The notes under the pieces: generated by a model | What the model saw: the letters and a program-made list of their open reading frames with translations, nothing else | What the model was told of the DNA's origin: nothing | The model's database searches: none | Translations under genes and position numbers: made by a program | Source: Trueperaceae bacterium | GTDB taxonomy: Bacteria > Deinococcota > Deinococci > Deinococcales > Trueperaceae | Length of the DNA stretch: 57,739 nucleotides | Assembly: GCA_011390735.1 (NCBI GenBank) | Contig: JAABRV010000001.1 | Coordinates: 1 to 57,739, forward strand | Direction of reading: 5' to 3' | Shown: positions 5,374 to 49,527 of the stretch, piece by piece | How positions within the stretch are numbered: the stretch's first letter is position 1 | Layout: each line of letters starts with the position of its first letter

Positions 5374-9882
<4,509 letters not shown>

Positions 9883-9886
<4 letters not shown>

Positions 9887-10434
9887 CCACCGCCACCGCC
9901 GGCGCGGCCGCCCCCTTCGGCCTGATCGCCGAGTACGACACCCCGGAGCAGGTGCTCGTCGCCGCCGAGGCCGCGCGCAAGGCCGGCTACACGCGCATGG
10001 ACGCCTACACCCCACACCCCGTCGAAGGGATGGACGATGCCCTCGGGCTCGCGCCGACCAACCTCGGTTTCGTGGTGCTGGCGATGGGCCTGTTCGGCGC
10101 GGCCGCCGGCTACTTCCTGCAGTGGTACTCGGCGACCGTCTTCTACCCGCTGAACATCGGTGGCCGCCCGCTCCACGACTGGCCCACCTACGTCGTCATC
10201 ACCTTCGAGGTCACCGTGCTCCTCGCGGCGTTCACGGCCGGGCTCTTCATGCTCGCCCGCAACGGCCTGCCGCGGCCGTACCACCCCGTCTTCAACACGC
10301 CGGGCTTCGAGCGCGCGACCCGCGACGGCTACTACCTGTGCATCGAGGCCGTCGATCCGCGCTTCGACGAGACCGAGGTCCGCGGCTTCCTCGAGGGCAC
10401 CCAGCCCGTCAGCGTGCACCGGGTGGCGCCATGA
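9883..10434 (+). CDS. actD: ACIII subunit ActD (DUF3341-type)
   Basis: ATGA overlap with actC. N-terminal soluble part FGLIAEYDTPEQVLVAAEAARKAGYTRMDAYTPHP, followed by two TM helices. Confidence 0.85.
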
Positions 10435-11024
10435 CCCGGGCGTTTGGATTCCGCGTGGCCACGCTGTTGGCGATCGTCCTCCTGCTCGCCGGCTGCGGCC
10501 GCAACATGGTGGATCAGCCGAACCTGCGCCCGCTGCAGGGCTCCGAGTTCTTCGCCGACGGCGCCGGCATGCGCCCGCCGCTGGAGGGCACCGTGTCGCG
10601 CCGCGAGGGCGCGGTGGATCCGGTGTTCCTGACGGGTCAGGGTGCGGGCGGGCTCGTCACGGAGCTGCCCGTCGAGCTGACGCTGGAGCTGCTGCAGCGC
10701 GGGCAGGAGCGCTACGACATCTTCTGTTCCGTGTGCCACGGGCACACCGGCGCCGGCGACGGCATGATCGTCAGCCGCGGCTTCCCGGCGCCGACCTCGT
10801 TCCACGACCAGCGGCTGCTCGACGCCTCGGTCGGCTACTACTTCAGCGCGATGACCAACGGCTTCGGTCGCATGTACAGCTACGCCTCGCGCATCTCGCC
10901 CGAGGACCGCTGGGCGATCGCGGGGTACGTCAAGGCGCTGCAGCTGTCGCAGAACGCCACCCTCGACGACGTGCCCACGGACGTCCGCCTCGAACTCGAG
11001 AACAGCGAAGGACGGGTCCGCTGA
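10431..11024 (+). CDS. actE: ACIII subunit ActE, monoheme cytochrome c lipoprotein
   Basis: ATGA overlap with actD. Lipobox LLLAGC. Single CSVCH heme motif. Confidence 0.85.
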   Translation: MTRAFGFRVATLLAIVLLLAGCGRNMVDQPNLRPLQGSEFFADGAGMRPPLEGTVSRREGAVDPVFLTGQGAGGLVTELPVELTLELLQRGQERYDIFCSVCHGHTGAGDGMIVSRGFPAPTSFHDQRLLDASVGYYFSAMTNGFGRMYSYASRISPEDRWAIAGYVKALQLSQNATLDDVPTDVRLELENSEGRVR

Positions 11025-12247
11025 TGGCCGCCGCCCCCACCACCATCGCCACCGCCCGCCCCGCCGTCATCGCGCTCGCGCTCGGCGTGGTCGGCCTCGC
11101 CGCCGGCCTGGCCGGCACCCTCGGCAACGGCGGCCTGCCCGGCGCCGTCCTGATGGGCTTCGTGTTCTGGGTCGGCCTGTCGGTCGGCGGCCTCGGCCTG
11201 CTGCTCATCGACCACATGGCCGGCGGCAGCTGGGGCGCCGTCGTCCGGCGCCCGCTCGAGGCCATGGTCTCGGCGCTCCCGGTCGCGCTGCTCTTCTTCC
11301 TGCCGATCGCCTTCTTCATCCCGCAGCTCTACCCGTGGGCGGACGCCGCCTACGTCGAGGCGCACAAGCTGGTGGCCTGGAAGGCCGGCTACCTCAACGC
11401 CACCTGGTACGTGCTCCGGTCGGTGATCTACTTCGCGCTGTGGCTGCTGGCCGCCTGGATCTACCTGCGCGGCGCGCGCGAGCAGGACGCCGCCGACCTC
11501 GGTCGCGCCGGCCTCATCGGCTACCGCCTGAAGGCCACCGCCGCCGTGTGGTTGGTCGTGTACGTGCTGACGATGACCCTCGCGGTGACGGATTGGACGA
11601 TGTCGCTGACCCCCGAGTGGTGGTCGGGCATCTATGGGCTCATCTTCATGATCGGCCAGACGATCGCCGCCATGTCGCTGGTCATCCTGACCATGGTGTG
11701 GCTGGCCCGCCGCAGCCCGCGCGTCGACGGCCTGCTCACCGAGAAGCGCCTGCAGGACCTCGGCAACTTCCTCATGGCGTTCATCATGTTCTGGGCCTAC
11801 GTCAACGTCAGCCAGCTGATCATCCAGTGGACCAACAACGTCGTCGAGACCAACACCTTCTACGTGCTGCGGCTGTACGAGCAGCCGTGGCAGGGCCTCG
11901 GCGTCTACCTGCTGGTGGCCGGCTTCTTCCTGCCCTTCCTCATCCTCTTCTCGCGCTGGGTGAAGCGTGGCCGGGCCGTCCTGGCCTTCATGGCCGGCTG
12001 GGCGCTGCTCAACCAGGCGCTGCACGTCTACTGGTACGTCGCCCCCGAGATCGGTCGCGCCGGCCTGCCTGGCTTCGGCGACGTCGCGATCTTCCTCGGC
12101 CTCGGCGGTATCTGGTTCGCCGCCTTCCTGCGCAGCCTCGGCGCCCGCTCGGTGGTGCCGGAACGCGATCCCAGGCTGCTGGCGGCGGAGCACGCCCACC
12201 ACGCGACCGAGCCTCACGCTGCCGGACCGGAGGTCCGCCATGTCTGA
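11024..12247 (+). CDS. actF: ACIII subunit ActF (second NrfD-like membrane subunit)
   Basis: TGATG junction with actE. Polytopic membrane protein in the canonical sixth position. Confidence 0.85.
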   Translation: MAAAPTTIATARPAVIALALGVVGLAAGLAGTLGNGGLPGAVLMGFVFWVGLSVGGLGLLLIDHMAGGSWGAVVRRPLEAMVSALPVALLFFLPIAFFIPQLYPWADAAYVEAHKLVAWKAGYLNATWYVLRSVIYFALWLLAAWIYLRGAREQDAADLGRAGLIGYRLKATAAVWLVVYVLTMTLAVTDWTMSLTPEWWSGIYGLIFMIGQTIAAMSLVILTMVWLARRSPRVDGLLTEKRLQDLGNFLMAFIMFWAYVNVSQLIIQWTNNVVETNTFYVLRLYEQPWQGLGVYLLVAGFFLPFLILFSRWVKRGRAVLAFMAGWALLNQALHVYWYVAPEIGRAGLPGFGDVAIFLGLGGIWFAAFLRSLGARSVVPERDPRLLAAEHAHHATEPHAAGPEVRHV

Positions 12248-13016
12248 CCGCCCCAACCCCCGCTACCTGGTGTCGAGCGAGCAGGTGCGCGGCGCCTACT
12301 TCCTCGGCGGCATCGGCGCCGTCGCCCTGATCCTGGGCGTGCTGCTGCTCGCCAGCGCCCGCCCGCAGGGCAACCCCGTGACCGTCGACGACACCCAGTA
12401 CCAGAGCCAGCTGCAGGCGGCCGAGGCCGATCTCACCGGCTTCGAGCTGATCGGCGACGGCGCCCGCATCGACATCGACCACGCGATGCAGCTCGTCGTC
12501 GAACGCGGCGTCGACCTGCCGCTCTACGCGGGCGGCGCGGCCCCGGTGGCCGCATCCGACACCACGGCCGCGCCTGCGGCCCCCGCGGACGCGGATGCCG
12601 AGGTCCTCGCGCAGGCCGACGTCGACGGCGCCGCGCTCTACACCCAGCACTGCATGGCCTGCCACCAGGCGACCGGCGCCGGCATCCCCGGCGCGTTCCC
12701 GCCGATCGCGAACCACGTGGGCGAACTCGTCGCCGCGGACCGCGCCTACCCCGCGAAGCTCGTGTTGTTCGGCATGATGGGCGCGATCGAGGTGCAGGGC
12801 ACGACCTACAACGGCGTCATGCCCGGCCTGGCGGCCGTCCTCTCCGACGCGGACGTCGCCGGCATCCTCAACCACGTGCTGACGGCCTGGGACGACGTCG
12901 AGGTCCTCGGCGACGCGTTCGAGCCCTACGCCGCCGAGGAGGTCGCCGAGTGGCGCGCCACGGCGCTGCAGATGACCGACGTGTACGCGCTCCGGCAGGA
13001 GCTCGGGATCCCCTGA
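12240..13016 (+). CDS. Membrane-anchored class I monoheme cytochrome c, seventh gene of the act operon
   Basis: The ATG overlaps the actF 3' end by 8 nt. One TM helix (AYFLGGIGAVALILGVLLLA), a linker, then CMACH with a distal MPG methionine-ligand region. Confidence 0.8.
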   Translation: MSDRPNPRYLVSSEQVRGAYFLGGIGAVALILGVLLLASARPQGNPVTVDDTQYQSQLQAAEADLTGFELIGDGARIDIDHAMQLVVERGVDLPLYAGGAAPVAASDTTAAPAAPADADAEVLAQADVDGAALYTQHCMACHQATGAGIPGAFPPIANHVGELVAADRAYPAKLVLFGMMGAIEVQGTTYNGVMPGLAAVLSDADVAGILNHVLTAWDDVEVLGDAFEPYAAEEVAEWRATALQMTDVYALRQELGIP

Positions 13017-25460: not shown

Positions 25461-25547
25461 CGTCCCGCGGCGCCGCCGCGGCCAGGCCCGCGCGTCATGC
25501 CCGCGGGGGGGCGGCCTATCATGCGGGGGCGGCACGACCGCGCGACC

Positions 25548-27797
<2,250 letters not shown>

Positions 27798-32480: not shown

Positions 32481-33818
32481 TCAGCGCGTCGTGAAGTCGA
32501 CCAGCACGACCTCGGCCCCGTCGCGCACGAGCGCGTAGCGCCCGTCGCTCCACAGCAGGACGCCGGCGATCGCCCGCCAGTCGGCGCCATCGGCGGTGAC
32601 GATGCGGACGAAGCCGGCGTCGTTCTCGAGCGACCACGCCTCCCCGCCCAACGGCGCCTCGGCGGCCGCGTCGAGCCGGACGCGCGTGCCGAGGGTCGCG
32701 TCGGGCCACCAACTCGTGTCGCTGCCCGTCGCCGGGGGCGGGCCCTCCGGCCGGAGGGCCGCCGTGGGATCGCCGAGACCCCGGATGTCGCCGACATCGC
32801 GGCCGCTGCGGTCGGACAGCTCGACGACCACGAGCGCCGGGGGCGGCACGCCGCCCGGCAGGTAGGCGGTCGCCGCGATCGTTTCGGCGTCGATGCCCAG
32901 GCGCGTGCTCACCAGGGCCAAGGTCGCGACGCGGAACGCCTCCCGCACCCCGTCGCCATCCTCCGCCCACCCGGGCGGCCACAGCGAACGGTCTCGCAGC
33001 AGCACCAGGCCCGCCTCGGGCAGGCCCTCCGCCGACGCTGCCTCGGCCATCCCGCCGGCGCCCTCCTGCGCCGAACCGGCCAAGCCCTCGGCGGGCGCCG
33101 GCGGCTCGGCCTCAGCGGCCGGCGGTCCCTCGACCCCCGGCCTTTCCTCGTCGTCCGCCCGTTCCTCGCCGTCCGCCCGTTCCTCGCCGTCCGCCCGTTC
33201 CTCGCCCGCCGGCGCCAGCGTCAGGTCGATGAACGGGACGCCCTGCAGGTCGACGCCGGGCGGCGGCGGCAGTTCGGCCAGCGGCGCCAGGCTCCAGGCC
33301 CGAACGCTGCGCACCTCGGCGCCCTGCACCAGGGTGTACGTCGCCTGCTGCAGCGGGTCGAGGACCTGGCGCCGCACGGCCAGGCCGGCCGGCCAGGGCA
33401 ACACCCGCAGGTCCTGGCCGGCCACCGGATCGTCCCACAGCACGCGCGGCGCCAGCGGCATGATGCCGCCCGGGATCGCCTCGGCGAGCGCGGGGATCGG
33501 TCGCGCGCCGGCGACGTCGGGCATCGCCGCCGCGTAGCGCACGGCGGCCGCCCGGTTGGCGAACGCGCCCACGCGCACCCGGTAGACGTCGCCCTGCCCC
33601 CCCGTCGAGCGCACGACGTACGCCGGGAAACCGTCGCGCAACAGGCTCCGCGAGATGTCGACGGCGGTCGCCTGGTCCGACACCGCGATCACCTGCACGG
33701 TGAAGCTGATCGCCAGGGCGGACGCCGCGCCCGACGCGAGCCAGACGCCGAGCAGCACCCGCAGCGCCCGGCGCGGCCCGAGGCGCCCGGAACGCCGAGC
33801 GGGCGCGACGGCGACCAC
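32481..33818 (-). CDS. Membrane-anchored SPOR-domain protein with an acidic hexapeptide repeat
   Basis: Signal anchor LRVLLGVWLASGAASALA. SPOR fold FTVQVIAVSDQATAVDISRSLLRDGFPAYVV...VYRVRVGAFANRAAA. The GTG start lies 1 nt after the ABC-2 permease stop. Confidence 0.75.
   Translation of the reverse strand: MVAVAPARRSGRLGPRRALRVLLGVWLASGAASALAISFTVQVIAVSDQATAVDISRSLLRDGFPAYVVRSTGGQGDVYRVRVGAFANRAAAVRYAAAMPDVAGARPIPALAEAIPGGIMPLAPRVLWDDPVAGQDLRVLPWPAGLAVRRQVLDPLQQATYTLVQGAEVRSVRAWSLAPLAELPPPPGVDLQGVPFIDLTLAPAGEERADGEERADGEERADDEERPGVEGPPAAEAEPPAPAEGLAGSAQEGAGGMAEAASAEGLPEAGLVLLRDRSLWPPGWAEDGDGVREAFRVATLALVSTRLGIDAETIAATAYLPGGVPPPALVVVELSDRSGRDVGDIRGLGDPTAALRPEGPPPATGSDTSWWPDATLGTRVRLDAAAEAPLGGEAWSLENDAGFVRIVTADGADWRAIAGVLLWSDGRYALVRDGAEVVLVDFTTR
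33153..33206. repeat. Three perfect tandem copies of an 18-nt unit (GTCCGCCCGTTCCTCGCC), coding
   Basis: Read directly. On the coding (minus) strand it encodes (EERADG)x3, followed by a degenerate EERPG copy. Confidence 0.95.
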
Positions 33819-33819
33819 G

Positions 33820-34593
33820 TCAGAAGTCCTTGCGCTCGAACACGATGACCGCGACGGCGGCGAACGCCGCGCAGTAGAACGCGATCAGCGCGACCACCCA
33901 GCCGAGGTCGTTCGCGGGCGCCACGTACGCCGACAGCTGCGAGGTCAGCAGGTACGGCGTCACGCCCGGGAACACCACCAGCAACTCCATGACGATCAGC
34001 GTCGCCAGCGTGGCGAGGGCGCCCGCGGCGGCGTTCATGAACAGCACCGCGAACAGCACGGCCAACAGGGCGATCGGCAGCAGCGCGTAGGCGGCGATCA
34101 GGTAGGCGCGCAGCAGCTCGACCCAGGCGGCGGCCGGCGCCATCGTCCCCGTCCCCAGGAGGCCGGCGGCCCCCAACCCGGTGCCGCCCACGAACGAACC
34201 GAAGCCGAACGGGGCGCCCGCCAGCAGCGACGCCAGCAGGAACCAGCCGAGCGCCAGGAACGGCAGGGCGGAGACGACCAGCAGCTTCGCGAGCAGCCAC
34301 TGCGAGCGCGTGACGGGGCGCAGCAGCACCGTCGGCAACGTCCCGTGCTGGATCTCGATGCCGAGCAGCTCGGCGGCGGCGATCGCCACCAGCAGCGGCA
34401 GCAGGAAGGCCATGCTGGACAGCAGCGACAGCGCCGGCACCTGGAAGCCCGAGACGATGAAGAAGCCGTAGACGTCGAACACCCCTGGGGCGTAGGCCCA
34501 CAACCACGGGAACAGCGCCAGGACCACCAGGCCGAAGCGGACGCTGCTCAGGTGCGCCAGCTTGCCCAGCTCCATCCTGAGGAGCGCGATCAC
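33820..34593 (-). CDS. ABC-2 type transporter permease
   Basis: Six hydrophobic helices. The GTG start overlaps the ATPase stop (GTGA). Confidence 0.75.
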   Translation of the reverse strand: MIALLRMELGKLAHLSSVRFGLVVLALFPWLWAYAPGVFDVYGFFIVSGFQVPALSLLSSMAFLLPLLVAIAAAELLGIEIQHGTLPTVLLRPVTRSQWLLAKLLVVSALPFLALGWFLLASLLAGAPFGFGSFVGGTGLGAAGLLGTGTMAPAAAWVELLRAYLIAAYALLPIALLAVLFAVLFMNAAAGALATLATLIVMELLVVFPGVTPYLLTSQLSAYVAPANDLGWVVALIAFYCAAFAAVAVIVFERKDF

Positions 34594-35603
34594 CGCACGC
34601 CCCCACGCCCGCGGCCGGCGCGGCCGACCCTGGGCGGCGCCGTGTCGATCGCCAGGGCCTCGACCGCCGTGCGCCGCGCGCGTTCGGCCGTCACGCGCTC
34701 GCGGTAGTGCGCCCTGAGATCGAACACGTCGGGGCCGATCTCCAGCAGGTCGATGCCGCCGCCGACGAGGGACGCGGCGAGGCGCTCGGCGCCGGTGCCC
34801 GGGGCGAGCGCGGCCACCAGGTGATCGCCTCGCCGCTGCGCCTCGCGCACCCAGGGCTGCGCACGCAGCAGGGCCACCGCCGCCGGCACGTCGGTGACGC
34901 GGATGCGGAAGCGGGCCCGCCGGTCGCGCAGGTCGACCGCGTCGATCAGCTCGCCCTCCTCCATCAGCCCGACGAGGTGGCAGTACGCCACCACCTCGTC
35001 GAGGTGGTGGGTGGACAGGAGCACGGCGGTGCCCTCCTCGGCCGCCTCCTGCAGCACGCGGTGCACCAGGTGCAGCGACAGCGGGTCCATGCCGCTCGCC
35101 GGTTCGTCGAGGACGAGAATCTCCGGCCGCGTCAGCAGCGCGGCCGCCACGCCCAGCCGCTGGCGCATGCCGAGCGAGTAGATCCCCACCGGCCGGTCGG
35201 CGGCCGCGGTGAGTTCCATGCGGTCCAGCACCTCGCCGATCCGACCCGCGGGCACGCCGCCCGCCAGGCGCGCGTGGAGCCGCAGGTTGCGGCGGCCGCT
35301 GAGGTAGGGGTAGAAGGCCGCCGGGGCCTCGACCACCGCGCCGAGCCGGCGCCGCACCGAGGGGCGCTCGTGCGGGTCCTCGCCGAGCATCCGGACCGTC
35401 CCCGAGGTCGGGAAGGCCAGGCCGGCGACCAGTCGGATCACGGTCGTCTTGCCGGCGCCGTTCGGCCCGACCAGGGCATACACCTCGCCGGGCTGGACGC
35501 GCAGCGACAGGTCGCGAACCACGGGCCGGTGGCCGTACCGCTTGGTCAGGCGGACGGTCTCGATCGCGGGCGTCACACGGTTCGGAACGGCGTCCACGCG
35601 CAC
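34590..35603 (-). CDS. ABC transporter ATP-binding protein (ABC-2/CcmA-type) with a C-terminal extension
   Basis: Walker A GPNGAGKTT, signature YSLGMRQRLG, Walker B LVLDEPASGMD. The GTG start at 35603 is uncertain by a few codons. Confidence 0.88.
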   Translation of the reverse strand: MRVDAVPNRVTPAIETVRLTKRYGHRPVVRDLSLRVQPGEVYALVGPNGAGKTTVIRLVAGLAFPTSGTVRMLGEDPHERPSVRRRLGAVVEAPAAFYPYLSGRRNLRLHARLAGGVPAGRIGEVLDRMELTAAADRPVGIYSLGMRQRLGVAAALLTRPEILVLDEPASGMDPLSLHLVHRVLQEAAEEGTAVLLSTHHLDEVVAYCHLVGLMEEGELIDAVDLRDRRARFRIRVTDVPAAVALLRAQPWVREAQRRGDHLVAALAPGTGAERLAASLVGGGIDLLEIGPDVFDLRAHYRERVTAERARRTAVEALAIDTAPPRVGRAGRGRGGVR

Positions 35604-40199: not shown

Positions 40200-41030
40200 T
40201 CAGGCGGGCCCCTCGTCGTCGCCGTGGAACGGGCGCGCCAGCACCGTGTCGTCCACCATCAGGCCCAGGCGGAGGAGGTTGACCCTGGGCACCCACAGGT
40301 AGGCCCCGGCGCCCTCGGACGCGACCACCGGCACCGCGATGGCGCGCCCGTCCGGCAGCTTGAGCGCGACCTCGTCGAAGTCGCCGACGACCTCACGCCA
40401 CGCCCGGGCGATCCCGGCGTCGACGGCCACCCCGCCGACCGGCACGCCGGCGGGCGCGAGCCGCACGACGAGGCGGGCCGTACGCGGCCTGCGGGTGCGG
40501 ATCCGCAGCAGGCCGACGTGGACGAGGCGGGTGACCACCGCCCGGGCCTCCTCCTCGTCCATCGCGAGCTCACGGGCGATGCGGGCCACCGTCCAGTGGC
40601 CGTTGACCAGCGCCAGCACGCGCTGCTCGGGCGACCCCAGCGAGCGTCGTGTGCCGCCCTCGTCGGCGCCGAAGGGCACGGCGTCGCGCTCGACCAGCGG
40701 TGGCTTCTCTCCCGCCCGGCGTGACTCGTCCAGCCGCCGCAGCGCGTCGAGCACGATCGCCTCGGTGCTCGTCTCGACGGTCGTGCGCGGCGCGGGCAGC
40801 CCGGCCGTGAAGGCGAACGCGCCCCGCTCGTCGCCGAACAGCGCGTCGACCGCCGCCGGTCCCTCGAGATCGCCGAACTCGGCGTGCCGCAGCTGGCCGC
40901 GATCGAAGTAGAAGCGGGCCCGGCCCGACGGGTGCTGCACGCTGAGGCGGCCCGTCCGTTTCGAGGCGGCGAGCAGCTGGAACAAGTCCACGAGCGAGAA
41001 GAGACCCAGCGTCCCGGTCACGACCGCCAT
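40200..41030 (-). CDS. DUF4388 (PATAN-like) domain protein with a winged-helix-like middle region
   Basis: GTLGLFSLVDLFQLLAASKRTGRLSV is the DUF4388 N-terminus. LALVNGHWTVARIARELAMDEEEARAVVTRLVHVGLL looks like a wHTH. The stop abuts the trmB ATG with no gap. Confidence 0.7.
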   Translation of the reverse strand: MAVVTGTLGLFSLVDLFQLLAASKRTGRLSVQHPSGRARFYFDRGQLRHAEFGDLEGPAAVDALFGDERGAFAFTAGLPAPRTTVETSTEAIVLDALRRLDESRRAGEKPPLVERDAVPFGADEGGTRRSLGSPEQRVLALVNGHWTVARIARELAMDEEEARAVVTRLVHVGLLRIRTRRPRTARLVVRLAPAGVPVGGVAVDAGIARAWREVVGDFDEVALKLPDGRAIAVPVVASEGAGAYLWVPRVNLLRLGLMVDDTVLARPFHGDDEGPA

Positions 41031-41067: not shown

Positions 41068-42084
41068 TCAGGCCACCTCGTCCGGGTGCGGGACGTCGAC
41101 CGCGACCACGTCCTCGTCGGTCGGGCCGGCCGCGATCCCCAGGACGCCGTGCGCCGGCGTCCAGTCGCCCGCGTCGGGCCTGGGCGCGGTGACGGCGGTC
41201 CGCGCCACGACCGTCGACCGCCCCTCGAGTTCGAGCGGCGCGAGGCGCCCGACGAGCATGGGATTGACGCCGTAGCGCAGGTGCACGCGGCCCACCAGGC
41301 CGGCGCGCAGGCCGCGCTCGAGCCACGCCCGACCCTCGTCGATGCCGGGATCGGGCGGCCACGGTCGCGCCCAACTGGCCGCGTTGGCCGACGGTTGGAC
41401 CAGCACCTGGGCACCGAGGCCGTCGAACCGCTCGATCACGTGGTGGTACCAGCCGTCGAGGCAGACGGCGACCGCCACCCGACCCACGGGGGTGGCGACC
41501 ACCGGCAGGTCCTCGAGGCGTCCCCGGGCGAGGCCCACGCGCCGCTCCAGCCCGTCGGTGAGGAACACCTTCGGCGCCCGCGCCACGACGGCGCCGTTGG
41601 GCGCGAAGACCAGGGCCAGGTTGTGCACGCGGGGATCGACGACGTGCAGGCCGCGGGCGGCCTCGTAGGCCACCGTCGGGAAGAAGCCGCTGCCGGCGAC
41701 CAGCGTGGCCCCGGTCGCCCGGGCCGCGCGAACGAACGCCGCCGTCCACATCGCGTACGCGTCGACCGCGAGGTCGGCGTAGGCGGCGTCGCCCCAGCGC
41801 CACCCACGACGCAGCGCCAGCGCCGTCCAGCGCGTGCCGCGTCGCCGGAGCAGCGCCCGGACGGCGGCCCACAGACCGTCCTGCAGCCGCTCCCCGACGC
41901 CGCCCGCCGTGGCCAGCAGCGGCAGCGCCCACAGCTCGGGGAACGCGACGAGCGCCGGGCCCGGCGCCCCGACGACGGCCCGGACCGCCAGCTCCTCCAC
42001 CCGGTCCGAGAAGCGCTCGGCCGAGGCGTAGTCCTCGGCGCGCCACCTCGGCTGCACCGCCGCCAGCCGCACCCTGCTGCCCAT
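41068..42084 (-). CDS. Carbon-nitrogen hydrolase (nitrilase superfamily) protein
   Basis: Putative Glu-Lys-Cys triad contexts VAFPELW, RAPKVFL and VAVCLDGW. Start set at ATG 42084. Confidence 0.72.
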   Translation of the reverse strand: MGSRVRLAAVQPRWRAEDYASAERFSDRVEELAVRAVVGAPGPALVAFPELWALPLLATAGGVGERLQDGLWAAVRALLRRRGTRWTALALRRGWRWGDAAYADLAVDAYAMWTAAFVRAARATGATLVAGSGFFPTVAYEAARGLHVVDPRVHNLALVFAPNGAVVARAPKVFLTDGLERRVGLARGRLEDLPVVATPVGRVAVAVCLDGWYHHVIERFDGLGAQVLVQPSANAASWARPWPPDPGIDEGRAWLERGLRAGLVGRVHLRYGVNPMLVGRLAPLELEGRSTVVARTAVTAPRPDAGDWTPAHGVLGIAAGPTDEDVVAVDVPHPDEVA

Positions 42085-42126: not shown

Positions 42127-42132
42127 TAGACT
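42127..42132 (+). promoter_or_regulatory. -10 box TAGACT 6 nt upstream of the lptF-like GTG; leaderless candidate
   Basis: TAGACT-cggtgg-GTG. Confidence 0.33.
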
Positions 42133-42138
42133 CGGTGG

Positions 42139-43209
42139 GTGACGCTGCGCCTGGGCCGTTACCTGGTTCGCGAGGTCGCCGGCCTCTACCTGCTCGGTGT
42201 CGCCGCCCTCTGCCTGCTGCTGTCGATCGACCTGCTCAGCGTGATGGCGCGCTTCCTGGTCGAGCACGACGCGGGCGCCCCGGCCATCGCGCGGCTGCTC
42301 GTCTTCAAGCTCCCCTGGTTCCTCCACCTCACGCTGCCGTTGGCGGTGGTCTTCTCGATCCTGGTCGCCAGCGGGCGCCTGGCGAAGGACGCGGAGCTCA
42401 AGGCGGCGTACGCGGGCGGGGTGCCGCCGATCCGCCTGCTCACGCCGCTGATCGGCGTCGGCGCGGTCGTGACGGTCCTCGCGCTGGGGATCAACGGCTG
42501 GCTCGAGCCGTGGGGCGAGGCGGCGTACCAGCGCGAGATCCAGGGCTTCCTCTACGCCCGTCCGCCGGCGGCGACGCAGGTCGACGCCGCCTTCGCGATC
42601 GACGGTGTCGGCACCTTCTTCGCCGCGCGCCTGCGCGCCGACCGCGACGACCCGACGCGCGCCGAGCTCAGCGGGGTGCTGGTCGTGCTCGCCGACGGGC
42701 GCACCGTGACCGCCCCGCGCGGCGCCTGGGACGCGATCACCCGGACGTGGGCGCTCGAGGGCGCCCGCGTGACGGCGCCGGGCGATTCGCAGGGGGAACA
42801 GGAGGCGGGCGCGGTGACCCTCGCCTTCCCCCTCGAGTCGACGCCCGAGCAGGCGCTCATGCGCCCCGCGCTGCAGACGCTGACCCAGCTCGTGGCGCGC
42901 GTGGGCGACCTGCGCGAGGCCGGTGGCGACGTCGCCGAGGCGCGCTTCGCGCTGCACCGGCGGCTGGCCGACGCGTCCAGCGCCGTCGTGTTCGCGCTGG
43001 CGGCGGGCGCGCTGGCGCTGCGCGTGCGTGGCCGCGCCGCCGGCCTCGGCTGGACGATCGCGCTCGTCGTCGGCTTCTGGGCGAGCTGGACGCTGACCGG
43101 CACGCTGTTCGATCGCGGCGTCCTGGGCGCCCTCGGTGCGGCCTGGGCCACCCCCGCCGCGGTCGCCGCGGCCGGCGGGGCCCTCGCCTGGTGGGTCGCG
43201 TCGCGATGA
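42139..43209 (+). CDS. lptF: YjgP/YjgQ-family permease (LptF-like)
   Basis: N-terminus MTLRLGRYLVREV resembles the LptF/G start. Three TM helices, a periplasmic beta-rich insert, then three TM helices. The F versus G label is by gene order only. Confidence 0.78.
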   Translation: MTLRLGRYLVREVAGLYLLGVAALCLLLSIDLLSVMARFLVEHDAGAPAIARLLVFKLPWFLHLTLPLAVVFSILVASGRLAKDAELKAAYAGGVPPIRLLTPLIGVGAVVTVLALGINGWLEPWGEAAYQREIQGFLYARPPAATQVDAAFAIDGVGTFFAARLRADRDDPTRAELSGVLVVLADGRTVTAPRGAWDAITRTWALEGARVTAPGDSQGEQEAGAVTLAFPLESTPEQALMRPALQTLTQLVARVGDLREAGGDVAEARFALHRRLADASSAVVFALAAGALALRVRGRAAGLGWTIALVVGFWASWTLTGTLFDRGVLGALGAAWATPAAVAAAGGALAWWVASR

Positions 43210-44273
43210 ACGTCTGGGGTCGGGCCATCGCGCGCGAGATCGCGCCGCTGTACGTCCTCGGCCTGATGGTGCTGACGCTCCTCCTGCTCCTCTCCTTCCT
43301 GCTCGACGTGCTCGCCGACGTCGTGTCGCGCGGGGTCCCCGCGGGCACGGTGGCGGCCTTCCTGCTGCTCAAACTGCCCAGCGCGGCGGCCGCCGGCCTG
43401 CCGCTGGCGCTCCTGTTCGCGGCGCTGCTGGCGCTCTCGCGCGCGACGCAGGACGGCGAGCTGCGGGCCGCGCTGCAGCTCGGCGTCTCGCCGGTCGCGA
43501 CGGTGCGGCCGATCCTGATCGTCGGCGCCGCGGTCGCGCTGCTCACGCTGGCGAACAACGAGATCCTCGTCCCGTGGGCCGAGCAGCGGGCGCTCGAGGT
43601 CCAGCGCGAGATCCTCCTGCGCAGCCCCGAGACCGTGCTGCGCTCGGGCGCCTTCTTCGAGGACGCGCTCGGTCGCTCGATCTTCCTGCGGCGGGTCACC
43701 GCCGACGGCGAGCTCGAGGGCATCACCGTCATCGCCCCGGGCGGCAGCCAGGGACCGCGACAGCTGATCGAGGCGGCCCGCGGCGTCGCCGATCCGGCGG
43801 CGGGCGTGTGGCGCCTCGAGGACCTGCGCCTGCGCTCCTTCCGCTCCGGCCGCACGGTGATCGACGTGCGCGCCGCGTCCGCCCTCCTGCCGGTCCGCGG
43901 CCTGACCGCGGGGGTGGTGGGCAACGTCGATCTCGTCACCCTGCCGCTGCCCGAGCTGCTGCGCCGCGTGCGCGAGGGCGGGCGCGACACCGCCGCCGAG
44001 CTCACCGCCCTGCACCGCAAGGCCGCCGAGCCCGCGGCGGCGCTGGCGTTCGCGCTGTTCGCGGCGGCCGTCGCCTTCGCCGGCGTCCGCCGCGCCGCCC
44101 CGCTGGGCCTGGTGTCCGTCTTCGTCCTGACGTTCGTGTACTACGCCACTTGGAGCGTCGCCAAGCTGCTGGGGGCCCAGGGCACGGTGCCCGCCGCGGT
44201 GGCCGGTTGGGCGCCGGTCGCGCTGTACGCGGGGGCCGGCGCCGTCCTGCTGCTGCGGGCGGTGCGCCGGTGA
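43206..44273 (+). CDS. lptG: YjgP/YjgQ-family permease (LptG-like)
   Basis: ATGA overlap with the previous gene. Same 3 TM + insert + 3 TM layout. N-terminus RAIAREIAPLYVLGL. Confidence 0.78.
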   Translation: MNVWGRAIAREIAPLYVLGLMVLTLLLLLSFLLDVLADVVSRGVPAGTVAAFLLLKLPSAAAAGLPLALLFAALLALSRATQDGELRAALQLGVSPVATVRPILIVGAAVALLTLANNEILVPWAEQRALEVQREILLRSPETVLRSGAFFEDALGRSIFLRRVTADGELEGITVIAPGGSQGPRQLIEAARGVADPAAGVWRLEDLRLRSFRSGRTVIDVRAASALLPVRGLTAGVVGNVDLVTLPLPELLRRVREGGRDTAAELTALHRKAAEPAAALAFALFAAAVAFAGVRRAAPLGLVSVFVLTFVYYATWSVAKLLGAQGTVPAAVAGWAPVALYAGAGAVLLLRAVRR

Positions 44274-47269
44274 GGGCCGCGGGGTCCGGCGCCGTCCGCG
44301 CCCCCCGCCCGCGGGCGCCCCGGCGGCGCGGGCTGGCCACGCTCGCCCTCGTCGCCCTGCTGTCGTGGTCGGGCGCGCTGGCGGCGACCCTGACGATCGA
44401 CACCGGCGACGACCCGAACGCCAGGCTGGAGCTGCGCCGCACGCGACTCCCCAGCGGCGTCGAGGTCGAGTTGATCGTGTTGACCGGCGAACGCGTCACG
44501 CTGACCGTCGACGACCTCGTGATCGTCGGTGCCCGCATCGAGCTCGACGTCGACGCCCGGCTGGTGCGCGTCGTCGGCCCCGGCAGCTTCACGTCCGGCG
44601 AGGAGCGGCTCGAGGGCGTCGATCTGGAGCTGCGGCTGGACGAGGAACGCGTGCGCGCCGTCGACGCGATCGTCTTCACCAGCGCGATCGACGTCACCGG
44701 CGACCTCGCCGAGCGGCTGCCGGGCCAACTGACCTTCACCGAGGGGCTGGCGTCGCCCTGCTCGCGCTGCTCGCAGGAGGTCCTCGACTACGCCTTCCGA
44801 GCCGCGCGGATGACGCTCTTCCCCGGCGACCGGCTGGTCGGTCACGACGTGGCGGTGCAGGTGCGCGGCGTCACCGTGCTGCGGCTACCCGTGCTGGTCA
44901 TCCCCCTCGCCCAGGGCGACCGGCAGCCGCGCCTGTCGATCGCCAGCGGCACGGCGACCCGCCGCGCCGAGGTGCGCCTGCGCTGGCCCTACGTCGCCGG
45001 GCCCGACGGCCTCGGGACCTTCACGGTCCGCTACCTGGCGGACGTCGACCCGACGGCCGACGGCGGGCCCGCCGGGCGCCTGCTCGGCGGCGCCGTCGAG
45101 GTGAGCTACCTCGGCTTCGAGCTCGATCACCGGCTGTACGACGACGTGGGGAGCGGGACGGCGTTCGTCGCGTACGAGCCGCCCCGCGCGGCCGCGCCGG
45201 CGTCGCCCGGCGCGGCCGCGCGCGAAGCCCGCGACGCCGAGTGGACCGTGCGCCTGGCGTACGCGGCCGAGCAGATCGGCGCCGAGCCCAGCGTGCGCTT
45301 CGAGGTCGCCCGCGACGACGCGCGCACCCCGGGCCGCTGGACCTACGTGACCTCCCTGAGCGTCAGCGATCCCGACGTCGCCGGCGTCGGGCTGCGCGGA
45401 CGGGTCGACAGCCAGGGCTTCATCGACACCGACCCGAGCGTCGACCCGCGCACGGCACCCCCCTACGCCGATCGCCGCACCCCGCGGGTCACGGCCCTGC
45501 AGTTGCGCCTCGACCCCCTCGACCTCACCCGCCTGCAGCTGGGGCAGCTGCGGGTCACGTCGGCCGGTCTGGACCTCGGGTTCTTCGAGGACGCCGCGAA
45601 CCCCGTCAACCGGCGCGCCGCCGCCGCCGGCGTGGTCGCCGACGGGCGGCTGGCGCTCGCGCACCAGGTCACCCTGGCGCCCTGGACGGTGTGGAGCGGC
45701 GGGCGACTCGAGGCCGACAACCGCTTCGAGGGGCGCTACTACGGCTCGGCGGAGCGCGCCGTCCAGTGGCGCAGCCGCGTGGCGTTCGGCCAGGCCTTCG
45801 GCAACTTCGGCAACGCCTCGCTGACGTTCACCCGCGACGTCACGGAGGGCGAGACGCCCTTCCGCTTCGACGCGGCGGTCAACCGGTCGCGCAGCGACCT
45901 CGGCTTCGGGGTCGACCTGCGCCCCGCGCCCTGGCTGAGCCTGCGGAGCGACGGCGGCTACGTCCTCGTCGAGAACCGCCGGCCCGAGACGGTCGGCTGG
46001 GCGCCGCTGACGACCCGGCTGACGCTGTTCGGCAACGTCGCGGGCGTGGACGCGTCGCTCGAGCACCGCTGGCCGATCCGCGAGGAGGAACCGGGCACCC
46101 TGCGCGCCAGCGTCTCGCTCCAGGGCCGCCGCGACGCCGTCGACCTGCGCGTCGGGCTGGAGCACCTGCAGGACCTGCGCGTCGAGCCCGCCGAGCCGCG
46201 CGTGGCGGAGACCTTCACCCGCTTCACCTGGCGCGCCGCCTACGACGGCTGGGTCGCGGTCGACGTGACCGCCACCTACCGGCCCGAACCCGCCGCCGAC
46301 GCGGCGGGGCGCGTCCGCACCGTCGATCCGCTCGATCTCCGGCTCGAGCTGGGGAGCCTGCGCACCGGCGAGGCGCGCCCGGGGTTGCGGCTCCAGGCGC
46401 AGTTCGACGCCGAGCTGGAGCGCTTCGAGCGCCTCGACGTCGACCTGCGGGCCCGTCTCGGCCCCGTCGAGCTGGAGGCCCGCGAGCGCGTGACGCTGCC
46501 CGAGACGCGCGTCACCGAGGCGCGGCTCGCGCTCGCGTGGCAGGGCGTCGCGCGCCTGGAGGCGCGCGGCTTCGAGTGGCTGCCACCGGCGGTGTTCGGC
46601 CACGAGGTCGAACCGCGCGTGCGCCAGCTCAGCGTGCAGCTGCGCGAGGAGCGCGAGCGCGGCGCCGGCCGTTGGGAGCTCGGCTGGCGCACGACGCTCG
46701 ACCCGGCGCTCGTGGAGACGGGCCGGCGCGACACCCGCCTGGACGCCCGCGTCTCGCTGCTGCAGGAGAACTTCGGACCCTGGTTCGTCAGCGTCGAGGG
46801 GCTCGGCGAGTGGGCCCTGGCCGACGACCTGCAGCCCGAGGCCTTCCTGCGGCGCGCCTCGCTGGCCTTCGGCGCCGACGTGGCCGAGCGCTTCGGCGTG
46901 CAGGGCCGGCTGAGCTACCAGGCCAGCTACGACCGGCTGCGCGAGGAGCTGGGCCGCAGCGAGCTGACGATCGGCGAGCTGACGGTGGCCGTGCGGCCGA
47001 CCGACCAGCTCACGGTCGGCGCGCGGATCGAGGACGTGTGGGAGTTCGCCCGCAGCGACCCGGCGCGCTCGCCATGGAACTTCCAGCCCCAGGTGTTCTT
47101 CGTGTGGGACCGCTGCTGCTGGGCCCTGGCGGGCTCGTGGAACGCCGAGACCGGCACCGTTCGCCTGTTGTTGACGGGCCCCGGCGCCGACAACGGGCTC
47201 GAGCAGGTCCTCGACACCGGCTGGACGCTGCCCCGCGTGGGCCTGCGCGAGGACGAGGAGCAACCATGA
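44270..47269 (+). CDS. lptD: LptD/OstA-like giant outer-membrane beta-barrel protein (999 aa)
   Basis: GTGA overlap with the lptG-like gene. Signal peptide LATLALVALLSWSGALA. N-terminal OstA/LptA-like repeating beta pattern, then a long amphipathic beta-strand body. Only four Cys residues: C164/C167 and adjacent C949/C950, an LptD-like arrangement. Confidence 0.65.
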   Translation: MRAAGSGAVRAPRPRAPRRRGLATLALVALLSWSGALAATLTIDTGDDPNARLELRRTRLPSGVEVELIVLTGERVTLTVDDLVIVGARIELDVDARLVRVVGPGSFTSGEERLEGVDLELRLDEERVRAVDAIVFTSAIDVTGDLAERLPGQLTFTEGLASPCSRCSQEVLDYAFRAARMTLFPGDRLVGHDVAVQVRGVTVLRLPVLVIPLAQGDRQPRLSIASGTATRRAEVRLRWPYVAGPDGLGTFTVRYLADVDPTADGGPAGRLLGGAVEVSYLGFELDHRLYDDVGSGTAFVAYEPPRAAAPASPGAAAREARDAEWTVRLAYAAEQIGAEPSVRFEVARDDARTPGRWTYVTSLSVSDPDVAGVGLRGRVDSQGFIDTDPSVDPRTAPPYADRRTPRVTALQLRLDPLDLTRLQLGQLRVTSAGLDLGFFEDAANPVNRRAAAAGVVADGRLALAHQVTLAPWTVWSGGRLEADNRFEGRYYGSAERAVQWRSRVAFGQAFGNFGNASLTFTRDVTEGETPFRFDAAVNRSRSDLGFGVDLRPAPWLSLRSDGGYVLVENRRPETVGWAPLTTRLTLFGNVAGVDASLEHRWPIREEEPGTLRASVSLQGRRDAVDLRVGLEHLQDLRVEPAEPRVAETFTRFTWRAAYDGWVAVDVTATYRPEPAADAAGRVRTVDPLDLRLELGSLRTGEARPGLRLQAQFDAELERFERLDVDLRARLGPVELEARERVTLPETRVTEARLALAWQGVARLEARGFEWLPPAVFGHEVEPRVRQLSVQLREERERGAGRWELGWRTTLDPALVETGRRDTRLDARVSLLQENFGPWFVSVEGLGEWALADDLQPEAFLRRASLAFGADVAERFGVQGRLSYQASYDRLREELGRSELTIGELTVAVRPTDQLTVGARIEDVWEFARSDPARSPWNFQPQVFFVWDRCCWALAGSWNAETGTVRLLLTGPGADNGLEQVLDTGWTLPRVGLREDEEQP

Positions 47270-48468
47270 GACGACTCCTGACGGCGCTGCTCGCCGCCGC
47301 GGCGCTTGCCGGCTGCACCGGCACCTTCACGCCGCCGCTCCCGACGCTGTACCTGGTGTTCGTGGAGGCCGACGGCGGCGACCCCGCCCGCGTCGCGCTG
47401 CTCGACTTCGTCGTCACCGCCAGCGAGCGGCGGCTCGACCTGCTGACCGAGGAGGCCTACCGCTTCGGCACGGACGAAACGCTGATCGCGATCGACGTCA
47501 TGGACCGCGTCGAGCGCCAGGAGGCGTGGGTGCTGACCGCCGCCGGCCCCGCCTCGCGCGCACTGACGCTGCACCGGCTCGATTTGCGCGAGCTTCCCGA
47601 CGTGCCCGGCACCGTCCTGCAGCGGATCGGCGACCCGCTGCCGCTGACGGACGCCGATGGGGCCTGGGACGCGGCCTTCTCCAGCGCCACCGCCGTGCCC
47701 ACGGGCTGCCTGTCGAACCTCGTGGTGGCGCCGGCGGGCGACGCCGTCGCGCTGTGGGACCCGGGCACCGGGGCGCGCTGCGGCGCCGTGGCCGACGCCC
47801 CCGACCCGCGCGTCCACGTGCTCGACCTCGCGACCGCGACCGTGCGCGAGCCGATCGGCGAGGCCCGCGCCCCCGGCGTCCGCGCGGGCGACCCCGAGCT
47901 CGGGCGCTCGAACCGCCTGCTGCTCGTGCGACGCCCGACGGCGGTCGACCCGGACACCGTGCGCGTGACGGAGTTCGGCTTCGACGACGCGACGCCGCCG
48001 CCGCTGGCCGACGGCACCCTGGTCGAGCGGTTCCTCGACGTGGCCGGCGTCCCCGGCGGGTTCGCCGCGCTCCGTCGGACCGACGGCGGCAGCGGGCGCG
48101 AGGTCGTCGTGCACGCGCGGGCGGGCGACGAGCCCGCCGTGCGCGCGATGGCGGACGACGCCACGCGGCTGGTCGTCGACGACAGCGGCGCGCTCGCCAC
48201 CCTGGTGACGACCGGCGGCGGCCGCATCGGCGTCACCTACGCGGACGAGGCCGAGCCGCGCGAGATCTCCTTCACCGCCAGCGACCTGACGATCGACCCG
48301 CTCAACGCCTACGCCTTGGCGGTGCGGCCCGGTGGCGTGTGCGTCGTCGACCTGCTGGTCCCGAGCAGCGCCTCGACCTGCGACCTGCCGATCGACGCCG
48401 TGGTCCGCGACGCGCTCGCCGGCGCCCGCTTCGTCACCTGGACGTTCGCCGAGCCCAGCGCGCCCTGA
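47266..48468 (+). CDS. Lipoprotein of unknown family (400 aa), translationally coupled to the LptD-like gene
   Basis: ATGA overlap. Lipobox in MRRLLTALLAAAALAGC. The remainder is beta-rich, and I recognise no motif. Confidence 0.7.
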   Translation: MRRLLTALLAAAALAGCTGTFTPPLPTLYLVFVEADGGDPARVALLDFVVTASERRLDLLTEEAYRFGTDETLIAIDVMDRVERQEAWVLTAAGPASRALTLHRLDLRELPDVPGTVLQRIGDPLPLTDADGAWDAAFSSATAVPTGCLSNLVVAPAGDAVALWDPGTGARCGAVADAPDPRVHVLDLATATVREPIGEARAPGVRAGDPELGRSNRLLLVRRPTAVDPDTVRVTEFGFDDATPPPLADGTLVERFLDVAGVPGGFAALRRTDGGSGREVVVHARAGDEPAVRAMADDATRLVVDDSGALATLVTTGGGRIGVTYADEAEPREISFTASDLTIDPLNAYALAVRPGGVCVVDLLVPSSASTCDLPIDAVVRDALAGARFVTWTFAEPSAP

Positions 48469-48498
48469 CGGGCGCGGCACGCCCCGACGGGCGCGGCC

Positions 48499-49527
48499 TC
48501 AGCCGCCCGCCAGCCGCGCCAGGCCGTCGGCGATGCGGTCGCGCACGCCGGCGTCGACCATCTTGCGGGCGGTGCCCAGCGCGTTGCGCACCGCCCGGGC
48601 GTCCGCCGAGCCGTGGCCGATGAAGGCGTAGCCGTCGACGCCCAGGAGCGGCTGCGCCCCGTACGTGCCCGGGTCGAGGCGGTCGGCGATCCCGCGGAGC
48701 GCGGGGCGCACGAGGAGGCCCCCGAGCTTGGCCCGCAGCGAGCTGCGCAACGCGTCGCGCACCATGCCGAAGAGCACCTTCGCCTCGCCCTCGGCGAGCT
48801 TGAGCATGACGTTACCGGTGAAGCCGTCGGCGACGACCACGTGGGTGGTGCCGGCCAGCAAATCGCGGCCTTCGACGTTGCCGTGGAAGTTCACGCCGGG
48901 CGTCTCCCTGAGTAGGGCGTGTGCGGCGACGACGAGCTCGTTGCCCTTCCCCTCCTCCTCACCGATCGACATGAGCCCGACGCTCGGGTTCGGGTCGCCG
49001 TAGAAGGCGCGCGCGTAGACGCTCCCCATGACCGCGAACTGCTGCAGCCACGCGGGCTTGCAGTCGGCGTTGGCGCCGGCGTCGATCAAAGCGGTGAAGC
49101 CGGTCTTCGTCGGCACGTTGGCGAGGATCGCCGGCCGCTCGACGCCCGGGAGCCGCCCCAGGACCAGGAGGGCCGCGGCCATCGTCGCGCCAGAATGCCC
49201 CATCGACACGACCGCCGCGGCCTCGCCCGCCTTCACCAGGCGCGTCGCCACGACGATCGAGGCGTCCTTGCGGCGGCGCACGTCGCCGGCGCTGTCCTGC
49301 ATCGCGATGACGTCGCCCGCGTGCACGATGGGCAGCTCGGCGCCACGCGAGCGCAGGGCCTCGCGCAGCCGCGCCTCGTCCCCCACGAGCACCACGCGCT
49401 CGCCCGCGGAGACGGCCCGCAGCGCGCCCTCGATGGCGGCGTCGGGCATGCGGTCGCCCCCCATGGCGTCGAGGGCGATCAGCGGCGGCTGGGACGGTGC
49501 GGGGGCGGCGGCGCTCATGGCGCCCAT
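48499..49527 (-). CDS. plsX: Phosphate acyltransferase PlsX
   Basis: IALDAMGGD N-terminal motif and the GNVMLK region. An alternative leaderless start at ATG 49518 is preceded by TACCAT plus 7 nt. Confidence 0.92.
   Translation of the reverse strand: MGAMSAAAPAPSQPPLIALDAMGGDRMPDAAIEGALRAVSAGERVVLVGDEARLREALRSRGAELPIVHAGDVIAMQDSAGDVRRRKDASIVVATRLVKAGEAAAVVSMGHSGATMAAALLVLGRLPGVERPAILANVPTKTGFTALIDAGANADCKPAWLQQFAVMGSVYARAFYGDPNPSVGLMSIGEEEGKGNELVVAAHALLRETPGVNFHGNVEGRDLLAGTTHVVVADGFTGNVMLKLAEGEAKVLFGMVRDALRSSLRAKLGGLLVRPALRGIADRLDPGTYGAQPLLGVDGYAFIGHGSADARAVRNALGTARKMVDAGVRDRIADGLARLAGG

Follow-up and report, generated by a model that had tools for sequence, protein, structure and literature searches.

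Known Lpt systems and the Trueperaceae locus

The system considered here is a four-gene operon in a metagenome-assembled genome (MAG) of an uncultured Trueperaceae bacterium, lying at positions 42139–48468 of a window of 57,739 nucleotides (assembly GCA_011390735.1, contig JAABRV010000001.1, positions 1 to 57,739, forward strand). Its closest described counterparts are the Lpt proteins of diderm bacteria, in particular the LptDE translocon of Escherichia coli and Shigella (PDB entries 4q35, 4rhb and 8h1r). Like these, the third gene of the locus encodes a protein predicted to have a signal peptide, an N-terminal jellyroll and a large C-terminal barrel, and is accompanied by a dedicated lipoprotein gene; the structural similarity reaches a Foldseek E-value of about 4e-16. 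A cysteine at the end of the jellyroll (C164, against C173 in E. coli LptD) and a CC pair some 50–60 residues from the C terminus are also shared. In contrast, sequence identity to E. coli LptD is only ~11%, about 40 predicted strands follow the jellyroll instead of 26, and the N-domain cysteines form a CxxC motif where E. coli has residues 31 and 173. Its lipoprotein partner is a predicted 40-kDa propeller and not a ~20-kDa LptE, and the genes form one operon with lptFG, whereas E. coli lptD adjoins surA.

Atypical LptD proteins have been described in other lineages. Those of Acetonema longum occur without LptE and have non-canonical strand numbers, and a large survey of barrels reported LptD-like proteins of variable size in most phyla. 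The protein studied here resembles such Terrabacteria LptDs (A. longum F7NLY8 and F7NII2, the cyanobacterial DUF3769 type, and the fused LptF/G-LptA-LptD protein of Thermotoga), which are divergent, lack LptE, have a non-canonical barrel size and often stand beside LptF/G. Unlike them, the Deinococcota branch is ~200–300 residues longer, bears a CxxC...CC signature, has its own propeller lipoprotein, and is associated with two LptF/G paralogues instead of a single homodimeric one. BB0838 of Borrelia burgdorferi, a diderm described as free of lipopolysaccharide (LPS), is likewise LptD-like; its barrel is predicted to be enlarged, and LptE is lacking. Unlike the situation in the Deinococcota, the Borrelia gene is unlinked to lptFG, lptCAB have been identified, the cargo consists of surface lipoproteins, and no propeller partner has been described.

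For the Deinococcota, outer-membrane building in such deep-branching, atypical diderms being still debated, published statements disagree. LptD orthologues were listed in Deinococcus radiodurans and Thermus thermophilus (Putker et al. 2015, as cited in a preprint on Borrelia LptD), D. radiodurans was reported to be without lptC and lptE (Tran et al. 2010), and a large survey never found lptD and lptE in Deinococcus-Thermus (Leonard et al., PMC8871954), whereas others list LptD orthologues there. As far as lptD is concerned, the statement that the phylum lacks it is contradicted by the present data. The presence of LptD in Deinococcus and Thermus was already known, UniRef names included; what is new here is the different putative lipoprotein subunit, the probably enlarged barrel and the fused operon.

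Four genes of the same strand make up the operon, joined by 4-nt start/stop overlaps that are visible both in the list of open reading frames (ORFs) and by direct reading: ATGA at 43206–43209, GTGA at 44270–44273 and ATGA at 47266–47269. A preliminary description of this DNA had given the span of the four genes, these overlaps and a TAGACT hexamer at 42127–42132, and all proved exact when the sequence was re-read. We consider it probable that the two membrane-embedded ends of a trans-envelope lipid exporter of the Lpt type are encoded here, together with a propeller lipoprotein partner, its cargo being most likely related to lipid A.

Gene 3 as a divergent LptD

Gene 3 (44270–47269, + strand, GTG start) encodes a protein of 999 amino acids that we assign to a divergent type of the outer-membrane translocon LptD. 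An AlphaFold2 (AF2) model built on 47 homologues, with a mean predicted local distance difference test score (pLDDT) of 87.6, displays a signal-like helix followed by 12 long strands (residues ~41–212) and then by ~40 further strands forming an all-beta body. The helix comprises residues 18–37, residues 1–17 having a pLDDT below 50, and lies in a predicted signal peptide (44270–44383, + strand, residues 1–38) with an Arg-rich n-region, a hydrophobic core and a putative cleavage site between ALA and A. The N-terminal strands form a beta-jellyroll of the OstA/LptD_N type (44390–44905, + strand, residues ~41–212), as judged from the model and from profile alignments, and the remainder is the predicted beta-barrel body (44930–47224, + strand, residues ~221–985); the model supports this division into two all-beta domains with high confidence. 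The ~40 strands of this body were counted by DSSP on the AF2 model, a secondary-structure count and not one of barrel coordinates, and the barrel is probably larger than the canonical one of 26 strands.

When the model was compared with the PDB using Foldseek, the top 35 matches were all LptD, with E-values from 3.6e-16 to 2.5e-5; full-length LptD chains ranked between 3.6e-16 and 7e-13, barrel-only LptD structures at about 1e-6, and the N-terminal domain also matched LptC (6mit_C). The signal peptide and the long beta-strand body announced by the preliminary description are thus present in the model.

Sequence homologues fall into several tiers. A word-indexed search returned 72 proteins, all unnamed or labelled "hypothetical protein [Trueperaceae bacterium]" and none with a Pfam domain, while an exhaustive search with a hidden Markov model (HMM) of the gene 3 family retrieved 517 proteins among 1.84 billion representatives. 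A second tier of this profile search consists of proteins of 820–1060 amino acids from Deinococcus, Deinobacterium and Marinithermus, identified by exact look-up, which bear the name "LPS-assembly protein LptD" in UniRef and are mostly hypothetical in NCBI. The remote tier (E-values 1e-10 to 1e-20) comprises proteins mostly of ~700 amino acids, and among the 34 that were tested LptD_N was recognised in 27, DUF3769 in four, LptD (PF04453) in three (best E-value 3e-23) and LptD_2 in two. Aligned with hhalign, the Deinococcota family and the remote LptD_N-bearing tier matched with a probability of 100% and an E-value of 2.3e-56 over 563 columns, covering the jellyroll and much of the barrel. Two members of the remote tier were located on contigs, and both lie in LPS clusters. 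The first (L088) stands in the order OmpH - OmpH - LpxD - ... - LptF/G - homologue - LptC - ... - ABC (ATP-binding cassette) ATPase - LpxC, the second (L089) in the order LptD_N protein - ABC ATPase - ... - SLH/SlpA-type tether - homologue. The neighbours of these remote homologues include LptC, LptA-like, LptB-like and Lpx genes.

Several results weigh against this identification. Direct scans of gene 3 found no Pfam or NCBIfam family at E ≤ 0.1, LptD_N (PF03968), LptD (PF04453) and LptD_2 included, and the gene 3 family profile retrieved nothing at E ≤ 10 from the PDB sequences. The template-modelling (TM) scores of the Foldseek matches are low (0.2–0.33), meaning a poor global fit, as would be expected from a larger barrel and a free orientation of the domains. 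Finally, hhalign against E. coli LptD alone was weak (probability 12.5%, E-value 2e-3); this alignment, which places the jellyroll onto residues 67–228 and a PVLxLPxLVxPL...RQPR segment onto the junction motif, was used only for the register of C164 and C173. The preliminary description had taken a null result with the LptD and OstA profiles in advance as refuting its assignment. We nevertheless uphold the LptD identity of gene 3, because the structural and profile-profile evidence overrules the null family scans. The same holds for the OstA/LptA-like N-terminal region that had been claimed, which is recovered by structure and by profile-profile comparison and is not visible to Pfam directly.

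Taking together the Foldseek matches, the LptD_N domains of the remote tier and the hhalign result, we conclude from sequence profiles and models that gene 3, as first claimed, is a genuine though very divergent LptD homologue of the Terrabacteria type that standard models miss. Its family can be converted into an HMM and used to correct the presence/absence matrices on which arguments about outer-membrane evolution are built.

A protein of the remote tier that is found in Bacillota MAGs (P0207, 1100 aa) combines in one polypeptide an LptF/LptG permease domain and an LptD_N-like stretch that the gene 3 profile recognises, and is similar to a fused Lpt protein reported from Thermotoga maritima (PMC10160955).

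Cysteine pattern of gene 3

Exactly four cysteines occur in gene 3, at positions 164, 167, 949 and 950. C164 and C167 form a CxxC motif at the end of the jellyroll (44759–44770, + strand), and, 50 residues before the C terminus, C949 and C950 form a CC pair (47114–47119, + strand) within a conserved WDRCCWAL motif. One cysteine of each motif, C164 and C950, does not vary among the sequences from Trueperaceae, Deinococcus and Thermales, and the other (C167 or C949) is at least 90% conserved. The remote LptD_N-bearing tier has two invariant cysteines, one at the corresponding site of the N-domain and another close to the C terminus. C164 was aligned with C173 of E. coli LptD, in the weak hhalign comparison (E-value 2e-3) mentioned above, and the CC pair corresponds in position to C724/C725 of that protein.

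The preliminary description had placed the four cysteines as in E. coli. This stands for the CC pair, and must be amended for the N-domain, where a CxxC motif at the C173 site is found instead of the distant residues C31 and C173. It is established for E. coli LptD (see also PMC10567701) that the N-domain cysteines bond to the adjacent C724/C725 pair. By analogy, the CxxC and CC motifs most likely form interdomain disulfides that would lock the jellyroll to the barrel.

The lipoprotein encoded by gene 4

Gene 4 (47266–48468, + strand, ATG start, 400 aa) is preceded by a GAGGAG Shine-Dalgarno sequence and encodes a protein that begins MRRLLTALLAAAALAGC. Its translation contains an LAGC lipobox with the cysteine at position 17, followed by the mature N-terminus C-T-G-T (47305–47325, + strand). 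Apart from a weak match to a lipobox model, it was assigned to no Pfam or NCBIfam family and to no catalytic family. The AF2 model (pLDDT 88.2; predicted TM score, pTM, 0.88) is an all-beta, seven-bladed beta-propeller, and Foldseek retrieved only propellers, the best being Sec12, a Desulfotomaculum protein of unknown function, 6-phosphogluconolactonase and RACK1. LptE was absent from the Foldseek matches in the PDB, and no sequence match to LptE (PF04390) was obtained.

The preliminary description had presented gene 4 as a 400-aa lipoprotein of no nameable family in the position of an LptE-type plug. Size, lipoprotein nature, lack of a family and the genomic place of LptE are all upheld; the type is not, as the product is a predicted beta-propeller. 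Homology to LptE was considered and ruled out, since LptE has a two-layer alpha/beta fold of ~20 kDa and the gene 4 model is an all-beta propeller.

The family, as far as we can follow it, is specific to the Deinococcota. In nearly every syntenic orthologue, among them those of Deinococcus, Deinobacterium and Marinithermus, the lipobox is followed by C-[TS]-G-[TS]. Using jackhmmer, gene 4 matched the lipoproteins encoded downstream of the LptD-like gene in Deinobacterium (3e-44), Marinithermus (7e-29) and a Thermales-like MAG (1e-25); the match to the Deinococcus cavernae lipoprotein was marginal and that of D. proteolyticus was not detected, and all of these lipoproteins begin ...C-T-G-T.

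A described parallel is offered by BamB, also a beta-propeller lipoprotein accessory to a large barrel machine and of the same fold class. BamB is anchored in the outer membrane, has eight blades made of PQQ-like (pyrroloquinoline quinone-like) repeats and binds the POTRA domains of BamA. Gene 4, unlike BamB, has about seven blades, matches no repeat family and is linked to LptD and not to BamA. We found no description of a propeller partner of this kind in the literature searched, and it appears to be previously undescribed. It is a concrete candidate for the missing LptE function.

LptF/LptG permeases and conservation of the gene order

Genes 1 (42139–43209, + strand, GTG start, 356 aa) and 2 (43206–44273, + strand, ATG start, 355 aa) encode inner-membrane permeases of the LptF/LptG family, LptF-like and LptG-like, respectively. 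Gene 1 matched the LptF_LptG profile PF03739 with an E-value of 2.6e-57 (residues 7–351, profile positions 1–352 of 353) and gene 2 over its full length with 1.2e-64. This profile describes a permease of six transmembrane segments with a periplasmic beta-jellyroll insert, and the end-to-end matches, from a profile search that the preliminary description had suggested, confirm its assignment of both genes to YjgP/YjgQ (LptF/G-type) permeases. The NCBIfam models that separate the two subfamilies (TIGR04407 and TIGR04408, equivalog cut-offs of 230 and 240 bits) gave 95.9 bits for LptF and 93.6 bits for LptG with gene 1, and 144.8 bits for LptG and 138.4 bits for LptF with gene 2, all below the cut-offs. 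The labels LptF and LptG as used here rest mainly on gene order and on this small difference in score.

Conservation of the locus was assessed by a scan of one genome per GTDB species, which confirmed 159 relatives. The 80 best loci were retained, and where these carry a family name it is nearly always Trueperaceae. The homologues and the related loci place the host in this family, in agreement with the initial description of a genome looking like Deinococcota. By tblastn, lptF and lptG immediately precede the LptD-like gene in 64 of the 65 loci with enough upstream sequence, and the next downstream ORF is a lipoprotein of 380–450 amino acids with the C-[TS]-G-[TS] N-terminus in 55 of 59, with an exact 4-nt overlap in 33. 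Of the four loci that deviate, two have a truncated copy in which this N-terminus is preserved. The four-gene arrangement recurs in independent species-level loci and is more than chance. Departures from it include a Deinococcales bacterium (ABC2.109, L080), in which a partial match of 30% identity has no lptFG upstream and no CTGT lipoprotein downstream, and a locus (L040) with a histidine-phosphatase-like ORF in the position of the lipoprotein.

The gene contexts in Deinococcus and Thermales were examined individually, locus by locus. Marinithermus hydrothermalis has LptF, LptG, an 838-aa homologue of gene 3 and a 329-aa lipoprotein, all with 4-nt overlaps, and these four genes overlap likewise in a Thermales-like MAG. 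D. proteolyticus, D. cavernae and Deinobacterium chartae have instead a SpoIID gene, the LptD-like gene and a gene for a lipoprotein of 358–372 amino acids, lptFG not being adjacent. A search with the LptG protein aimed at the LptF/G of Deinococcus gave only Trueperaceae among the matches listed. The gene order, whose conservation across Deinococcota the preliminary description had proposed to check, is thus kept in Trueperaceae and Thermales, whereas Deinococcus and Deinobacterium retain the LptD-lipoprotein pair only, next to SpoIID. On these comparisons the pair is phylum-wide and the four-gene form is common to Trueperaceae and Thermales, so that the Deinococcota have a real but profile-invisible LptD that is operon-fused to lptFG in two of three lineages.

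The SpoIID-domain genes preceding the LptD-like gene (L082:6736-8004, L085:4752-5951 and L087:4661-6004) overlap it by 4 nt in two of the three cases. SpoIID is a family of peptidoglycan-remodelling proteins, and the linkage may tie the assembly of the translocon to its passage through a thick cell wall.

Missing components and cargo

Pfam scans of the ~49 ORFs of the window found no LptB, no LptA/LptC (OstA) and no Lpx domain, as the preliminary description had noted for lptB, lptC and lptA. An ABC ATPase at 34590–35603 was considered as LptB and rejected, being DrrA-like, paired with an ABC-2 permease and scoring 110.9 bits with the LptB model, whose cut-off is 240; the other ABC ATPase of the window (25521–27794) is an ABC-F protein. 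The operon had also been proposed to be a minimal exporter. This cannot be claimed, as LptF and LptG need an ATPase, which must be encoded elsewhere.

The cargo had been left open on the assumption of a host lineage without lipid A, which is wrong for the Trueperaceae. According to a published table (Antunes et al. 2016, PMC5007114, Supplementary file 2), LpxA, LpxC and LpxD are present in Truepera radiovictrix and Marinithermus hydrothermalis, in which LpxB was not found; all four enzymes LpxA-D are present in Meiothermus ruber and none in Deinococcus deserti. Its authors concluded that the ancestor of the Deinococcus-Thermus phylum had an LPS outer membrane. Since the presence of lpxA, lpxC and lpxD has been reported for the lineages in which all four genes of the operon occur, a lipid-A-related cargo is the most economical explanation, and the cargo in the Trueperaceae is most likely a glycolipid of this kind. 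The exported lipid may be atypical, as no lpxB was detected in Truepera and Marinithermus.

Besides the absence of Lpt and Lpx partners from the window, two points speak against this view of the cargo: the lpx evidence comes from an HMM-based table and concerns the type species of a different genus and not this MAG, and Deinococcus keeps the LptD-lipoprotein pair though D. deserti, the only Deinococcus genome in the table, is without lpx genes. Therefore lipid A cannot be the universal cargo, and some other amphiphile would have to be handled in Deinococcus, for which the Borrelia LptD homologue, which flips lipoproteins, and the fused Lpt protein of Thermotoga are precedents.

The last observation leads to the strongest alternative, close to that of the preliminary description, in which the machine is an uncharacterised envelope-lipid exporter handling a glycolipid or phosphoglycolipid unrelated to lipid A, for instance the glyco(phospho)lipids of Deinococcus and Thermus. 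The retention of the pair in both Deinococcus and Deinobacterium, set beside the lack of LpxA-D in D. deserti (PMC5007114), is in its favour, as are the LptD orthologues that the Borrelia LptD preprint mentions in the LPS-free D. radiodurans, T. thermophilus and T. maritima. The missing LpxB suggests that even in Truepera and Marinithermus the product may not be classical lipid A, and plsX adjoins the operon in the Trueperaceae and lies nearby in Marinithermus. We regard this alternative as unlikely, however, since lpxA, lpxC and lpxD are carried by Truepera and Marinithermus, the very lineages with the complete operon, and the remote homologues of gene 3 have lpx and lpt genes clustered around them.

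A different objection removes gene 4 from the translocon, taking the propeller as a periplasmic lipoprotein with a function of its own, as an enzyme or a binding protein, that is merely co-transcribed. Its fold does match lactonases, Sec12, RACK1 and generic propellers and not LptE. We also considered whether the lengths of barrel and lipoprotein co-vary, as expected of a fitted plug, and rejected this: lipoproteins of 329, 382, 358, 370, 372 and 400 amino acids accompany barrel proteins of 838, 832, 968, 907, 927 and 999, with no correlation. Against the objection, Trueperaceae, Thermales and Deinococcales all retain the LptD-lipoprotein pair, mostly with a 4-nt overlap and even where lptFG has moved away, no catalytic family was detected for gene 4, and BamB provides the analogy of a propeller lipoprotein that is a subunit of another outer-membrane barrel machine. 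An independent function thus seems rather improbable to us, and gene 4 is most likely an obligate lipoprotein partner of the translocon, acting as an assembly factor, a plug or a periplasmic adaptor.

That the system flips or exports surface lipoproteins, with gene 4 as cargo or surface-exposed subunit, appears very improbable: the Borrelia LptD homologue BB0838, whose barrel is predicted to be enlarged and which lacks an LptE, is required for the display of surface lipoproteins in this LPS-free diderm, E. coli LptDE is described in 8h1r and PMC12065857 as carrying lipoproteins such as YifL/LptM, and the Cys-Thr-Gly-Thr N-terminus, invariant among the orthologues of gene 4, could act as a signal for sorting or tethering, but the strict coupling of one specific lipoprotein gene to the LptD-like gene fits a subunit better than a general cargo, and lpx genes are present in the Trueperaceae family (T. 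radiovictrix).

Proposed mechanism

In the lipid exporter that we propose, an LptB dimer encoded at an unlinked site would power LptFG in drawing the lipid out of the inner membrane. Jellyroll domains, with or without LptA/LptC-like bridges, would then pass it on to the LptD-like protein, first to the N-domain and from there through the barrel into the outer leaflet. The interdomain disulfides discussed above would be formed by the CxxC and CC cysteines, and the propeller lipoprotein would assist assembly or gate the barrel.

A bolder version, which we put forward only tentatively and think rather doubtful, is that the Deinococcota Lpt machine is built differently, with an LptD barrel of ~35–40 strands and a propeller plug or gate replacing LptE, the same machine serving lineages with lpx genes (Truepera, Marinithermus) as well as lineages without them (Deinococcus, Thermus). 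By a geometric estimate, which is not a result, a ~40-strand barrel could in principle be wide enough for a propeller ~45–50 Å across. If true, the Deinococcota Lpt system would be a general exporter of outer-leaflet amphiphiles, and a switch of cargo could be traced within one phylum. T. thermophilus and D. radiodurans are genetically tractable organisms in which the Lpt cargo can be addressed when lipid A is reduced or absent.

Promoter and genomic context

A -10 promoter box, TAGACT (42127–42132, + strand), ends 6 nt before the GTG of gene 1. When the 45 nt upstream of lptF were aligned across 64 related loci, a TA(T/G/C)ACT hexamer, mostly inside GGTATACT, was found 6 nt before the lptF GTG in 55, and in most of the remaining nine it is present too, slightly shifted in registration. 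The spacers around it are otherwise unalignable and very GC-rich, and no -35 box is present at the start of the operon, so that a scan with the sigma-70 consensus gave no result. Because the hexamer is conserved at a fixed spacing within such unalignable spacers, the transcript is apparently leaderless and issued from a conserved promoter. Leaderless mRNAs are common in Deinococcus. The 4-nt overlaps would couple translation and help to keep the stoichiometry of the subunits; together with the conserved -10 box and the synteny, they agree with the initial view of the four genes as one translationally coupled, apparently leaderless unit.

The G+C content of the window is ~75%. Upstream, a carbon-nitrogen hydrolase gene (41068–42084) diverges from the operon at a distance of 54 bp from gene 1. 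Downstream, plsX (48499–49527, - strand) is convergent and lies 30 bp beyond gene 4. The spacer between the gene 4 and plsX stop codons (48466–48498, 30 bp) holds the 12-nt sequence GACGGGCGCGGC twice, as a direct repeat. It also has a short GC hairpin (GGGCG-CGGCA-CGCCC) and no T-run; no canonical terminator was detected by a scan of this spacer. A convergent plsX gene also follows the operon in most Trueperaceae loci, and in Marinithermus it lies 3.4 kb downstream (L083:13938-14921); it is one of several lipid-synthesis genes that are found repeatedly in the neighbourhood of the operon. Directly after the propeller lipoprotein, Marinithermus (L083:11508-12225) and Deinobacterium (L085:9911-10677) have a glyoxalase gene and then a VanZ-like gene, a second element of conserved context that is absent from the window.

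Farther from the operon, the window holds an alternative complex III-type operon (4720–13016, + strand) encoding a multihaem cytochrome c, a 1032-aa Fe-S subunit, an NrfD-like protein, ActD and cytochrome c subunits, as well as a 407-aa ORF (11024–12244) without a Pfam or NCBIfam match. A gene for a 425-aa SPOR-domain protein (32481–33758, - strand), with no NCBIfam match, adjoins the ABC-2 transporter pair at 33820–35603; SPOR is a septal peptidoglycan-binding domain. Two genes upstream of the lpt operon lies a gene with a DUF4388/PatA_N domain (40200–41030, - strand). A PatA_N gene is found in D. proteolyticus too (L082:1-525), ~7.5 kb upstream of the LptD-like gene, and in the same species plsY-like and phospholipase-D/cardiolipin-synthase-like genes (L082:745-4050) also lie upstream.

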